This document shows, piece by piece, positions 6,895 through 63,821 of a stretch of DNA of 64,000 nt (position 1 is its first letter; the number at the start of each line of letters is the position of its first letter). Below the pieces are notes generated by a model that was not told the origin of the DNA, made no database searches, and saw only the letters and a list, made by a program, of their open reading frames with translations. The stretch comes from Eledone cirrhosa (Eukaryota). The position numbers and the translations under genes are program-made. The stretch lies in NCBI GenBank assembly GCA_964016885.1, contig OZ024742.1, forward strand, positions 296,174,001-296,238,000. The letters run 5' to 3'.

Positions 6895-8088
6895 CGGAGG
6901 AGGTTATAGTTTACTTGAAGCATTGTGTAATGAGGTATAAACGTTTGAATATGTATAATAAAGCCAAAACAATGCAGGTATGGACATAGAAAAAAGAAGG
7001 CAATTGCAAAAGATATTGTTGACAATTTGTCTTTTACCTTAGATTTATTTAAATGTCCTTAATTTTCGAGATAACATCTCTTCTTCAGATGGAAATAAAG
7101 GTCTCAAACCAGCGTTGTAACTAGCTTGCCAAGCCATGCTGACAGGAAATAGTATAGAGTATCTGTTCTATCTCTAATGTCAAAGAGTTAAAATTAGGTG
7201 GATAAAGAGTAGTCTCCCTTTAAAAGGGGTTTGTTTATTTATTTTTTAATTTTTTAATATATACATGCCTGTTTAAGTGTGTGGGAGAATGCATGAAGGT
7301 GTAAGTATGTGAGTGTGTGAGTGTGAGAAGATAAGTCTATTCGTAAATGTGGGGGATAGGTGTTATCTGGTGTTAGAACTGGTTTAAGAAACACCTAGTT
7401 AAATGCAAAAACACCGACAAAACCATAACAGTTAGGATAGAAACTAAGGAAAGAAACCTCGGTAATCTTAGAATTAAGGAAGCACTAATTATAGATAAAA
7501 CACAACCACCAATCAATAATATACTAGAACTCAACACCCAATTTATAACCTGATAGGGCTTCTAGCCTCATATTTACCCCCCCCCCCCCTCCACACACGC
7601 TTACACCTCCACTTATTCTCTCTCACACATACACACACAAAGCCAGTTCTAACACTAGATAACACCTATCCCCCACATTTACGAATAGACTTATCTTCTC
7701 ACACTCACACATACACACTCACATACCTACAACTTCATGCATTCTCCCACACGCTTAAACAGGCATGTATATATATATAAAAAAAAAAAAATCAAACCCC
7801 TTTTTAAGGGAGACTACTCTTTATCCACCTAATTTTAACTCCTTGACATTAGAGATAGAACAGATACTCTATACTATTTCCTGTCAGCATGGCTTGGCAA
7901 GCTAGTTACAACGCTGGTTTGAGACCTTTATTTTCCTCTGAAGAAGAGATATTATCTCGAAAATTAGGGACATTTAAATAAATCTAAGGTAAAGGACGAA
8001 TTGTCAACAATATCTTTTGCAATTGCATTCTTTTTCTATGTCCATACCTGCATTGTTTTGGCTTTATTATACATATTCAAAAGTTTAT
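6895..8088. mobile_element. Truncated PLE with inverted pLTR
   Basis: Inverted arms at about 6936-7383 and 7641-8088. The spacer 7383-7553 (+) encodes FKKHLVKC...LRIKEALIIDKTQPPINN*, a GIY-YIG C-terminus. Hammerhead motifs occur in both arms. Confidence 0.8.
7934..7970 (+). ncRNA. Minimal type I hammerhead (inverted copy at 7056-7093, minus strand)
   Basis: TCCT CTGAAGA A GAGAT-ATT-ATCTC GAA AATT A GGGA; 4-nt palindromic stem III. Confidence 0.6.
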
Positions 8089-9000
8089 ATATATATATAT
8101 ATATATACATATATATATATATACATATATACATATATATACATATATATACATATATATATATATATACATATATACATATACATATATATATATACAT
8201 ATACATATATACATATACATATATACATATATATACATATACATATATACATGTATATATACATATACATATATATATACATATACATATATACATATAT
8301 ATATACATACATATATACATATATATATACATACATATATATATATATACATATATATATATACATATATATATATATATATACATATATATATATACAT
8401 ATATATACATACATATATATATATACATATATATATATACATATATATATATACATATATATACATACATATATATATATACATATATATACATACATAT
8501 ATATATATACATATATATACATACATATATATATATACATATATATACATACATATATATATATATACATATATATACATACATATATATATATATACAT
8601 ATGTATACATACATATATATATATATATACATATATATATATATATACATATATATATATATATATATATATACATATATATATATATATATACATATAT
8701 ATACATATACATATATATACATACATATATATATATATATATACATATATATACATACATATATATATATACATATATATACATACATATATATATATAT
8801 ACATATATATACATACATATATATATATACATATATATATATACATATATATACATACATATATATATACATATATATACATACATATATATACATACAT
8901 ATATATATACATATATATACATACATATATATACATACATATATATATATATACATATATATATATACATATATATACATACATATATATATACATATAT

Positions 9001-9610
9001 ATGGTGGCTGCCAACTCGTTTTCGAGTACGGCCACTACTTTATATCCTTGTAGGAGAACCCCTACCGATGCGCTGAACGAGTGTGACTTTTTAGTCTAGC
9101 CAGCGACTTGAAAACTCTGGTACAAACACTACACTTGTGACAAATATTGACACATAGTGCTGGGCCCATGATACCATGTGATGACAAGTACAGAGAGATC
9201 TCCAGATATAAAGCAATGCCTGTGCCGTGAAGCTTTTATAGTGAGCAAAGGCACTGCACAAAGCCAGTCCCAGTCTCTTAACCAAGATGATATTTACCAA
9301 AAAGAAGAACAAGTCAACATCATTGGATACCATCAGAGTTGCAGGTGTTATATCAGAGTTTTCCTTCTCCTAGAATTCTGCCTTGACAAAGGCTAAGGGG
9401 TCATCTCTCCCAGTGATTTTGGATGGCCACTGACTCTTAAGAGCTCCTTTGCCCGTTGACAGGTTTTGTTTTTAGTTCTGCAGGATGTCCAAAGTCACCC
9501 TCCTCACCAAGAAACCTTGGGAGTTGCCAGTTTAGTCGCCAACGACCCGTCCATGAGACAGGTTGTACTGGGATACATGTTACCAGTAGCACCAACTGGT
9601 GACCTGACAT
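9001..9610 (-). mobile_element. Internally deleted (bipartite) RTE-type non-autonomous retroelement
   Basis: Minus strand 9142-9062 encodes [26 protein letters not shown] (C2H2, as at the end of RTE ORFs), followed by the stem-loop CTCG-AAAA-CGAG. The 5' part has RTE-5'UTR-like motifs (GGCGACTAA; CTAGGAGAAGGAAAACTCTGA). Confidence 0.6.
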
Positions 9611-9683
9611 ATAAACATACATATATACATACACACATACATAATACTTACATACACACACACACACATACATATATATATAT

Positions 9684-60415: not shown

Positions 60416-60454
60416 CATATATATATATATATATATATATATATATATATATAT

Positions 60455-63400
60455 AATAATGAAATGACAGGAGGCTGGATTTGTGTAAATCCTTGAAATG
60501 TTTATTATACTATGATCATTTCAATGACCGGGTTCCGTATGAATCCGGTGATATCATCAGGTATTCGAAATATAATACGTGAATGTAATAGATAAAATCC
60601 ATGGGGCTGAAAATCGAGGACCCGAGGGCGACCGCTATCCAACACCTTCTACCTTAGCCGGTCGCCCTCGAGTGACGTGACTAAAGCTTACAGTGTGCTA
60701 CTACTGGTCAGATAAAGGAAAACAGAAAGGGATGGGAACCTAAGTTAGCGTTAATCTCATGCCACAAGATAAAAGAAAGAAAGAAAGGAAGAAGAGAGAA
60801 GAAGGGGGAAGGAAGAAGAAGAGAAGCCAGGGTTAATGTCAGCTATAAGAAGAAAGACAGAAAGAAAGAGGAGGAAAGGTCGGTATTACAGTCAGGCCAG
60901 GATTGTCGCGAAGATATTTTTTATTCTACGGGACCCGTATCTAAACAACTACTACCGGTCAGATATAGGCAAACAAAAAGGGGAAGGAAGATAAATCTGC
61001 GGGAGGAAGACAGAAAGAAGGCAGAAGAGAAGGAAGAAGTAGAAAAGTCAGGGTTGATGGCTACAAGAAGGATGATAGAAAGAAAGAGGAAGAAAGGTCG
61101 ATATTAATGTCAGACTACAGTCAGGCCAGGAGTGGCGCGGGAAAATTTTTACAGGGACCCGTATCTTAGCAGAGGTAAATATAGTGGGGGTCAATGTGTT
61201 ATAATGTGTGAGCAGAAGATTGGAACGTTACGTCTTTGTTTAGACTTATAGGATGAAGTTAAAAATTAATAATCAATATTCAATATCAAAGGAATTAGAA
61301 AATTCAAAGTCAAACAGTTTAACATTTTAAGGTTGATATATCTAACAGTTCTGATTTGATCCGTAATTTAAAGGTACTATGTGGCGGTTAAAAAACCAGC
61401 CGCGCTCTGGGACCCCGGGGCGAATCAGACCACTCCGAGTAGTTTCATTTATCGAAAGAAGGGGAAATTTATTTTTCCAAGCACTCAAGGTAGGCCCATG
61501 CGCCAGGGGGCCGGTCGCGACGCCAGGACAACCCACCCAACAGTCCGACATTTATAGGATGAAGTTGAAAGAATTCAGAATAACATTATAAAATTAAAGA
61601 GTAAGAAGATTGAGAATTGAACAAACAGAAAATTGAAGATTAAACATTTAAAAAAAACTTTTTTAAGGTTTTGGGTTGCGGGGTTTAGTAAAAGAGAGTC
61701 TTTTGTGAAGAAACGTTAATTAAAAGGAAGAAGTAGAAAAGTCAGGGTTGATGGCTACAAGAAGAAAGATAGAAAGAAAGAGGAAGAAAGGTCGATATTA
61801 ATGTCAGACTACAGTCAGGCCAGGAGTGGCGCGAACACATTTTCACAGGGACTCGTATCTTAGCAGAGGTAAATATAGTGGGGTCAGTGTGTTATAATGT
61901 GTGAGCAGAAGATTGGAACGTTACGTTTTTGTTTAGACTTATAGGATGAAGTTAAAAATTAATAATTAATATTTAATATTAAAGAAATTAGAAAATTTAA
62001 AGTTAAACAGTCTAATATTTTGACATTTTAAGGTTGATATATCTAATAGTTCTGATTTGATCTGTAATTTAACACTATGTGGCGGTTAAAAAACTGGCCG
62101 CGCGCCGGGCCCTCGGGGCGAATTAAGCCACTCCGAGTAGTTTTATTTACCGAAAGAAGGGGAAATTTATTTTTCCAAGCACTCAAGGTAGGCCCATGCG
62201 CCAGGGGGCTGGTCGCGCCGCCAGTAAAACCCACCCAACAGTCCGACAGAAAGTTGGAACTTTAAAATATTGTTTAAATTTATAGGACGAAGTTGAAAGA
62301 ATTCAGAATAACATTATAAAATTAAAGAGTAAGAAGATTGAGAATTGGACAAACAGAAAATTGAAAATTAAACATTTAAAAAAACAAACTTTTTAAAGGT
62401 TTTGGGTTGCGGGGTTTAATTAAAGAGAGTCTTTTAAGAAGAAACGTTAATTGTATTATGTAGATCTATAATTTATCCTAGTGGGATGTAGAGTAAGGGA
62501 TATAGTCGGGTAATATTTATTTTTGTTCTCAGGGGGAGACATTCTAGTGTCGTGTGCTAATGGGTACAAGTGAGCAAAAGTTCCAATAGGAGGAGTAGAA
62601 ATACATGGATACATAGAAGTGGAATACGTGGAAAAGCACATTGATAAAGCAAAGGTATAAATATATAAATTCTCTTTTACTAAACCCCGCAACCCAAAAC
62701 CTTAAAAAAGTTTTTTTTAAATGTTTAATCTTCAATTTTCTGTTTGTTCAATTCTCAATCTTCTTACTCTTTAATTCTATAATGTTATTCTGAATTCTTT
62801 CAACTTCATCCTATAAATTTAGACAGTATTTTAGCGTTCCAACTTTCTGTCGGACTGTTGGGTGGGTTGTCCTGGCGGCGCGACCGGCCCCCTGGCGCAT
62901 TGGCTACCTTGAGTGCTTGGAAAAATAAATTTCCCCTTCTTTCGATAAATGAAACTACTCGGAGTGGTCTGATTCGCCCCGGGATCAAATCAGAACTGTT
63001 AGATATATCAGAACTGTTAGATATATCAACCTTAAAATGTTAAACTGTTTGACTTTGAATTTTCTAATTCCTTTGATATTGAATATTGATTATTAATTTT
63101 TAACTTCATCCTATAAGTCTAAACAAAAACGTAACGTTCCAATCTTCTGCTCACACATTATAACACATTGACCCCCACTATATTTACCTCTGCTAAGATA
63201 CGGGTCCCTGTAAAAATTTTCCCGCGCCACTCCTGGCCTGACTGTAGTCTGACATTAATATCGACATTTCTTCCTCTTTCTTTCTATCTTCCTTCTTGTA
63301 GCCATCAACCCTGACTTTTCTACTTCTTCCTTTTCTTCCTTCTCTTCTGCCTTCTTTCTGTCTTCCTCCCGCAGACTTATCTTCCTTCCCCTTTTTGTTT

Positions 63401-63821
63401 GCCTATATCTGACCGGTAGTAGTTGTTTAGAAACGGGTCCCGTAGAATAAAAAAATTTCTTCGCGACAATCCTGGCCTGACTGTAATACCGACCTTTCCT
63501 CCTCTTTCTTTCTGTCTTTCTTCTTATAGCTGACATTAACCCTGGCTTCTCTTCTTCCTCCTTCCCCCTTCTTCTCTCTTCTTCCTTTCTTTCTTTCTTT
63601 TGTCTTGTGGCATGAGATTAACGCTAACTTAGGTTCCCATCCCTTTCTCTTTTCCTTTATCTGACCGGTAGTAGCACACTGTAAGCTTTAGTCACGTCAC
63701 TCGAGAGCAACCGGCTAAGGTAGAAGGTGCTGGATAGCGGTCGCCCTCGGGTCCTCGATTTTCAGCCCCATGGATTTTATCTATTACATTCACGTATTAT
63801 ATTTCGAATACCTGATGATAT
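60455..63821. mobile_element. Rearranged PLE 3'-end insertion with internal tandem duplications and inverted arm
   Basis: The left arm (minus) has a hammerhead at 60507-60564, and about 61030-61720 is duplicated at 61725-62450. The right arm 62675-63821 is inverted and breaks just after CTGATGA. There is a degenerate EN C-terminus-like reading VGWVVL...LECLEK. Confidence 0.75.

Follow-up and report, generated by a model that had tools for sequence, protein, structure and literature searches.

The window analysed here is the whole of a 64,000-nt stretch of the Eledone cirrhosa genome (3.0 Gb; assembly GCA_964016885.1, contig OZ024742.1, positions 296,174,001-296,238,000 of the forward strand). 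It is AT-rich, abundant in (TA)n arrays, and carries thirteen divergent inverted insertions of Penelope-like elements (PLEs). The insertions were located by comparison of the window with itself and by reading of their ends, and were assigned to eight families, labelled A to H. Two kinds of end recur, a short end (S) and a long end (L), the latter consisting of S plus a tail of 36-142 nt. All thirteen insertions are bounded by (TA)n, and each has one S and one L end. A preliminary description of the window had listed the thirteen insertions as divergent and inverted with outward-pointing 3' ends, and all thirteen were confirmed as divergent and inverted. The direction of the 3' ends was read from reverse transcriptase (RT) and endonuclease (EN) reading frames in families A, B, C, and E, and in family G from a GIY-YIG tail fragment together with a hammerhead motif; for families D, F, and H we infer it by analogy.

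Three of the insertions belong to family A. The largest (56543..59202) has S on the left, with an arm of about 1.68 kb, and L on the right, with an arm of about 0.93 kb plus a 60-nt tail; an RT-EN frame lies at 57051-58217 on the minus strand, the junction between the arms is at about 58214, and the tail between S and L (59143..59202, plus strand) corresponds to the 5' part of the open reading frame (ORF) of full-length copies. In an older copy (39801..41404), whose arms are 91.5% identical, L is on the left (58-60 nt) and S on the right. The third is a mini insertion (14184..14233) made up of a 33-nt S arm and the last 16 nt of the tail at the L end. Family B contributes insertions at 42622..42829 (L left, 79 nt; S right) and 56337..56530 (S left; L right, 79-83 nt). 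Family C contributes a mini insertion at 12897..13138 (L left, tail about 135 nt; S right) and a 10.9-kb insertion at 19442..30335 (S left; L right, 135 nt), the arms of which are 99.3% identical and contain RT/EN fragments at 23948-25512 on the minus strand. Single insertions represent family E (33494..36936; L left, 85 nt; S right; RT-EN frame at 35133-36509, minus strand), family F (37479..38606; S left; L right, 37 nt), family G (6895..8089; L left, tail 41 nt; S right; C-terminal GIY-YIG fragment at about 7385-7550), and family H (46078..46497; S left; L right, 36 nt; junction near 46263). The offset between arms had been given as 35-140 nt in twelve scorable cases; one short and one long end are found in all thirteen, with offsets of 36-142 nt measured for the twelve other than the insertion at 14184, whose arms do not overlap.

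Family D is present at 31093..32340 (S left; L right, 142 nt) and at 60455..64000, where S is on the left and the right arm runs off the window. Position 63821, previously taken as the right end of the latter insertion, is instead the point at which a long terminal repeat (LTR) retrotransposon interrupts the arm (63822 to about 70180; 6.4 kb, with 439-bp LTRs 97% identical and a 4-bp ATAT duplication). The right arm resumes past this element and runs on to about 70,425, beyond the window, where it ends at the L site of family D with an offset of 140 nt; the pairing of S with L still holds. The LTR retrotransposon (L080) itself contains a 1.67-kb palindromic stretch.

The same end points are reused within families, as had been noted for A (14184/39801/56543), B (42622/56337), and C (12897/19442), and this is also the case for D (31093/60455). 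The ends had been said to finish mostly in AT or TAT; the last letters are TAT, ATAT, TATA, AAT, CAT, or similar at 15 of the 16 S and L sites, and the S end of family H reads ...TATATAA. The window additionally holds a partial tandem of family B that was absent from the earlier list (512..4362, plus strand), consisting of a pseudo-LTR (pLTR) at 512-840, frameshifted RT-EN frames at 699-3072, and a second pLTR at 4033-4362 that ends at L. A 200-base N gap at 250-510 lies directly upstream and hides the other end of the tandem.

In full-length copies the sequence continues beyond both S and L, indicating that both are internal sites. In family A they share the sequence AATAT/CG, lie 60 nt apart, and are situated just after the candidate ATG of a 1,239-amino-acid RT-GIY-YIG open frame (L084), which gave Atlas matches of 0.96-0.98 to RT/HTH_animal/GIY-YIG clusters. 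The partial tandem of family B likewise places S (757) and L (about 836) within the 5' ORF, and in family E both sites are seen to be internal in L222-L227. Besides that of the window, partial tandems that define pLTRs were found for A (L081) and E (L222, L224, L226, L227). The canonical layout of EN-containing PLEs, an inverted 5'-truncated copy with a tail of 5' ORF sequence, is present.

RT and EN fragments were read in the window frames of families B, C, and E, and the endonuclease is C-terminal in these families and in A; an identity as Naiad/Chlamys elements, where it would be N-terminal, was rejected. The Hydra clade is characterised by a CxCX5C linker, no CCHH, a DKT motif, and a (TA)n target (PMC8557442). 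Families B, C, and E all insert into (TA)n and carry the CxCX5C linker; their EN core has a single Cys, and DKT was seen in B only. The label Hydra-type used for these families is an assignment by motif. The same applies to the Neptune/Nematis-type label of family A, which has a CX4CX2C finger, of the CX2-5CxxC kind, upstream of GIY-YIG and a C..C..H..H arrangement that fits the CCHH motif. No ORF was seen for D, F, and H. Of 11 proteins scanned against Pfam only two RT fragments of long interspersed nuclear elements (LINEs) gave matches, and none of eight PLE fragments did. Two ends also occur in a sister family that has diverged from A and carries another tail (L259, L258, L266, L006, L010, L016).

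Pairing of S with L was counted outside the window in families A, B, and E, in samples drawn by position, mostly from one contig, and biased to young copies with exact cores. For family A the probe was an exact 27-nt core, with 26,495 matches in the genome, of which 12,888 mark S junctions and 11,441 read on into the tail; pairs were defined as divergent matches no more than 6 kb apart. Among the matches listed on contig C1, 0-42 Mb (100 S and 88 tail), there are 47 divergent pairs, 43 of which join S to a tail, three tail to tail, and one S to S (50% expected; binomial p=1.3e-9). The tail stops at L in 43 of 43 S+tail pairs checked. As to the remaining four, two tail+tail pairs involve an internal pLTR with S and L outermost, the S+S pair consists of two separate insertions with a TA tract between them, and L079 is genuinely L+L. 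The final tally for family A is 45 S+L of 46, or 43 of 44 without two apparent duplicates. No partner was listed for 94 of the 188 arms; when 12 unpaired arms from the core matches were examined with 6-kb flanks, four had a diverged or tail-only partner of the opposite end type and eight were solo.

Similar results were obtained for the other two families. The family-B core has 8,653 matches, and 47 loci yielded 33 pairs: 28 were S+L by automatic call, three end at S with an imperfect TA flank, one has a read-through pLTR with L outermost, and one joins an intermediate end to L, giving 32 S+L, one intermediate+L, and neither S+S nor L+L. A bystander set of 12 family-B pairs, two of them in the window, comprises ten S+L, one S+intermediate, and one S+S. 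The family-E sample was anchored on tail-bearing arms; the first 30 of 2,387 such matches represent 27 insertions, of which 19 are S+L, one is L+L, and seven are without a visible partner (six of these searched over 1.5 kb only). Thus 19 of 20 two-ended family-E insertions are S+L, compared to an expectation of one third L+L (p=0.003). In addition, the outer end of L264 was forecast as S beforehand and was observed to be S. Overall, S+L makes up about 97% of two-ended insertions. End pairs counted by family outside the window are non-random, and near-obligate S+L pairing extends beyond the window.

We examined whether the two arms of an insertion carry the same sequence variants. At 50 informative sites in 32 family-A pairs, arms within an insertion were discordant in 22 of 486 comparisons (4.5%), compared to 8,014 of 24,965 (32%) between insertions, and none of 2,000 permutations gave a value as low. 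This shows a common source locus or subfamily for the two arms, not yet a common molecule.

Evidence bearing on a common molecule comes from clusters of A-to-G differences (A>G). The L arm of L076 has 29 A>G in 198 nt relative to the reference, its two arms disagree at 5 of about 200 positions, and a search of the genome for the pattern returns these two arms and nothing else. Genome-wide searches with this and four further patterns gave a set of 24 marked insertions. Seven share their marks in element sense on both arms (L076, L104, L135, L254, L255, L256, L257) and come from at least three subfamily backgrounds; three are marked on one side without a hairpin signature, four have marks of opposite sense, and ten have no usable overlap. 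Marks are therefore shared by both arms in 7 of 10 informative non-hairpin cases.

The four opposite-sense cases, in which one arm shows A>G and its partner T>C, appear to reflect a different process, the recopying of a whole hairpin. In L263 (C19:14.487-14.490 Mb) a LINE 3' end, a TA array of about 2 kb, and an entire inverted PLE insertion have been copied together from an unmarked parent, L262 (C2:106.388-106.392 Mb), with which it shares the same junction. Over the 1.4 kb compared, one strand of the copy carries 87 A>G, located in the stem and TA arrays, with none in the loop, and the copy is likely to be a 3' transduction of a hyper-edited RNA. The same opposite-sense pattern is found in L133, L136, and L138.

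The lengths of the arms were mapped in 41 family-A pairs. Either S or L may have the longer arm, and the junctions show 0-25 nt of overlap or short filler. Arms overlap by up to 1.8 kb, both starting at internal sites, and neither lies wholly within the other. In many insertions the S arm is much the longer (2.8 kb against 1.07 kb in L065; 2.1 kb against 89 nt in L078; more than one unit in L081), and some L arms consist of tail only, with no overlap with the S arm at all. In L140 the S arm is separated from a tail-only L arm by filler made of TTTCAG repeats, which suggests RT stuttering.

The 5' limits of the arms also cluster. In family B the 5' limit falls at -54 to -65 from S in 27 of 56 arms, bounded by the A of TCATTT; in family E, 11 of 53 end at -170 to -173, at the A of TCATAT and with varying junction filler, and seven further calls at -183/-184 are palindromic overextensions of the -170 end. 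Penelope has an internal promoter with an initiator (PMC2377424). The motifs at the family B and E limits are initiator-like, and the pile-ups would correspond to transcript starts. For family B the putative start (window position 4214) falls inside stem II of a hammerhead topology at 4168-4266, about 26 nt downstream of a TATA-like motif, so the 5' pLTR of such a transcript would lack half the ribozyme. In family A, 9 of 93 5' ends cluster 253-267 nt upstream of S, adjoining a AAGATGGCG/AAAATGGCG motif which we take to resemble a YY1 site, and a second cluster near -195 to -202 coincides with the 5' edge of the hammerhead.

Hammerhead motifs lie upstream of S, with predicted cuts at -164 in family A, about -123 in G, and about -20 in B. 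The strict hammerhead descriptor identifies those of A and G only: in the family-A insertion at 56543 the motif is at 58944..58978 (plus strand), its core 199 nt upstream of S, and in the family-G insertion the core is 152 nt upstream of S. Family B has a type I topology with a U3-A8 core, the fold of which (z=-0.78) is no better than that of shuffled sequences, and core-like motifs in D, E, F, and H were judged by eye. The best 150 of 304 Rfam matches include no hammerhead, and consist of matches to microRNA families, mostly on microsatellites. Arms extend through the predicted cut sites. The ribozyme cut was rejected as the point at which cDNAs stop, there being no pile-up at -164 in family A and the arms of family B passing -20.

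These results favour, in our judgement with good probability, a model in which PLEs integrate by double target-primed reverse transcription (TPRT) on one RNA, with priming at both S and L, strand displacement, and joining of the ends. The GIY-YIG domain would cut both strands of the self-complementary (TA)n target, an activity shown in vitro for a lizard PLE (PMC11167929). One 3' end would anneal at S by TA microhomology and be extended; with S occupied by cDNA, the other 3' end would use the next free site downstream, L, and synthesis from there would either displace the first cDNA or abort within the tail. Both cDNAs would proceed toward the 5' end of the RNA, stopping at random or at the transcript start, and their 3' ends would be joined by microhomology or filler and then filled in. 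A tandem transcript would give internal read-through pLTRs with S and L still outermost, and a single priming event would leave a solo arm. An insertion would then have one short and one long end because both free (TA)n ends prime the same RNA, each at its own fixed AU-rich site, the two sites being 36-142 nt apart and close to the ORF start; we consider this likely. Twin priming from both sides of a (TA)n cut at two distinct sites, as originally proposed for the window, is supported by the S+L pairing in three families and by the finding that neither arm contains the other. In L036 and L041 interruptions match in the two TA flanks, which favours a pre-existing array over telomerase-like addition of the flanks. 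Somewhat more cautiously, we lean toward a general view of PLE integration as an obligatorily asymmetric double TPRT on one RNA, in which two evolved AU sites in the 5' ORF direct the copying of the same template twice by strand displacement and fixed editing marks serve as natural single-molecule barcodes. If true, such a scheme would account for inverted pLTRs and for a tail on one side only across PLE clades, with no role for ribozyme cleavage.

Several observations weigh against this interpretation. Eight of the 12 unpaired arms examined are solo, so inversion is not obligatory, and three insertions have two ends of the same type (L079 and L223, L+L; L105, S+S). L103, L141, and L261 are marked on one arm only without a hairpin signature, and, by visual reading, a G/T marker is discordant in 2 of 29 family-B pairs. 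Several G's are common to L254 and L260, and some marks may thus be inherited from an edited source locus; the L076 pattern could conceivably derive from a source locus that has been lost. L255 and L256 have only two marks, at hot spots. It is from the sequence pattern that we infer ADAR editing as the origin of the A>G marks. With regard to the order of priming, the majority of tail-only L arms are 14-28 nt long and break off far short of S. Blockage of the L cDNA exactly at S was considered, and is seen in one case only (L140), the others stopping earlier; no order was concluded.

In an alternative model, an asymmetric complex built around a protein or ribozyme dimer would hold two RNAs transcribed from one source locus, with S as the start on one RNA and L on its partner. 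Dimerisation is predicted for the PLE protein (PMC11167929), and minimal hammerheads may function in pairs (PMC4209133); the shared haplotypes would also fit two transcripts of one locus, and the three one-sided marked cases and three same-end insertions are in keeping with two templates. However, marked arms are rare (31 matches to five patterns, compared to 26,495 core matches), so that a marked RNA should nearly always meet an unmarked partner, yet 7 of 10 informative non-hairpin cases share their marks and the L076 pattern is unique. The model also needs an extra rule for the asymmetry, and the arms cross the ribozyme cut site. We regard it as unlikely. The version put forward in the preliminary description, with the two RNAs held by a dimeric ribozyme, is not borne out: the arms share variants and marks and run past the cut site, and hammerhead mutations left insertion unaffected in vitro (PMC11167929). 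Nothing observed here requires a dimeric hammerhead.

A second alternative is that the arms had separate templates, or that the second arm was copied from DNA, either from the second strand of the first cDNA or by later gene conversion between the inverted arms. Inverted repeats can be homogenised, and an RT that left the RNA tail and moved to the second strand of the first product would give an identical final sequence. Old pairs nevertheless retain private differences (21 of 313 sites at 39801), hairpin-type copies retain many unconverted opposite-sense marks, and the template-switch form still requires priming at both S and L on one RNA. This alternative is judged quite improbable.

Single priming followed by fold-back, one arm being a snap-back copy of the other, is in our view very unlikely. 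Self-priming has been proposed for these elements (PMC3846280); it would account for identical arms, and palindromes and microhomology occur at many junctions, with short insertions often near-symmetric. A snap-back copy must lie within its template, yet the tail is present on the L side only, and many S arms extend well beyond their L partners; the arm lengths of L065, L078, and L081 rule out fold-back from the L arm. Tail-only L arms do not overlap the S arm, and the mechanism survives only with a further jump back to the RNA. Lastly, an assembly artefact, or clonal recopying of a few ready-made inverted units that would make the counts non-independent, is extremely improbable: although whole units do get recopied with the same junction, as in the C19 copy of the C2 locus, and two family-A pairs resemble local or segmental duplicates (L274/L275, L278), arm lengths and junctions vary among the 41 mapped family-A pairs as well as in B and E, arms diverge by 1-9% and end at family-specific sites, S+L still prevails in family A once duplicates are removed, and contigs from a public run, none of whose listed pieces spans the full 413-nt family-H stretch or the window's own junction, show six joints, two with clearly palindromic filler, plus family-H S ends followed by TA.

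The remainder of the window contains LINE fragments at 5466-6520, 9460-11948 (with RVT_1 matches for 9460-11857), 38891-39513, and 50463-53621, the stretch 11329-11952 being repeated at 38891-39513 with 99.7% identity. PLE insertions are frequently nested within the TA tails of LINEs and of other PLE insertions. In the (TA)n arrays at 4363-5465, 8092-8992, 11949-12476, 13141-16192, 18546-19435, 30340-33487, and 36935-38882, interruptions on a given strand are nearly all C or all G (e.g. 87 C vs 2 G). For seven arrays that follow LINE 3' ends, the interrupting base, read in LINE sense, is G in five; one array is C-rich and one even. Repeated editing and retro-copying of AU tails could build such C-only or G-only arrays; slippage of a variant unit is a plain alternative.

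Two features of LINE biology invite comparison with these insertions. In 3' transduction a LINE carries downstream sequence along, and this probably accounts for the C19 copy, whose cargo is a hyper-edited hairpin and a microsatellite; it is a side route and not the source of the S+L rule. In L1 twin priming both target strands prime one RNA and the cDNAs are joined by microhomology to give an inversion, the cDNAs being non-overlapping and one of them starting from the poly(A). The use of one RNA is indicated here indirectly, by the shared haplotypes and A>G marks. Unlike in L1, each PLE arm begins at a fixed internal position, and one region ends up copied in both.

Earlier work on PLEs has described (TA)n targeting, copies in inverted orientation, a tail on one side, and a pair of internal RT start sites (Craig 2021, PMC8557442; Frangieh 2024, PMC11167929). 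In the canonical EN-containing unit the tail is given as 30-40 bp and called optional (PMC8557442; PMC3846280), in contrast to the longer range of tails and the near-constant S+L pairing found here. To explain the inversion, Craig 2021 and Arkhipova 2013 (PMC3846280) put forward resolution by the endonuclease or self-priming from an antisense template, whereas the A>G marks in element sense point to a sense RNA copied twice. In the literature searched, whose coverage left out most subscription papers including the early Penelope work, no paper states the S+L pairing rule or a one-RNA template. What is new here is the count of near-obligate S+L pairing and the evidence for one RNA; the architecture, one-sided tail, and two start sites were already known. 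The S+L rule should help annotators to define element ends, and fixed A-to-G marks are usable as template barcodes for other retroelements.

A close parallel is with PAc, the Poseidon element of Anolis (PMC11167929), in which two internal RT start sites in the 5' ORF also bound the tail and the target is AT-rich. Both target strands are cut and extended by PAc and ribozyme cleavage is dispensable, matching our interpretation. The available text of that study reports no homology between start sites and cleaved DNA, whereas the start sites in E. cirrhosa end in TA microhomology to the target, and it is silent on how start sites are paired within one insertion and on whether one or two RNAs are used. 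The steps after initiation are left unvalidated there (PMC11167929), and formation of PLE inverted repeats and tails has been named an open question (PMC8557442). With a counted pairing rule and evidence for one template, the question of PLE inversion becomes addressable in the existing in vitro system.

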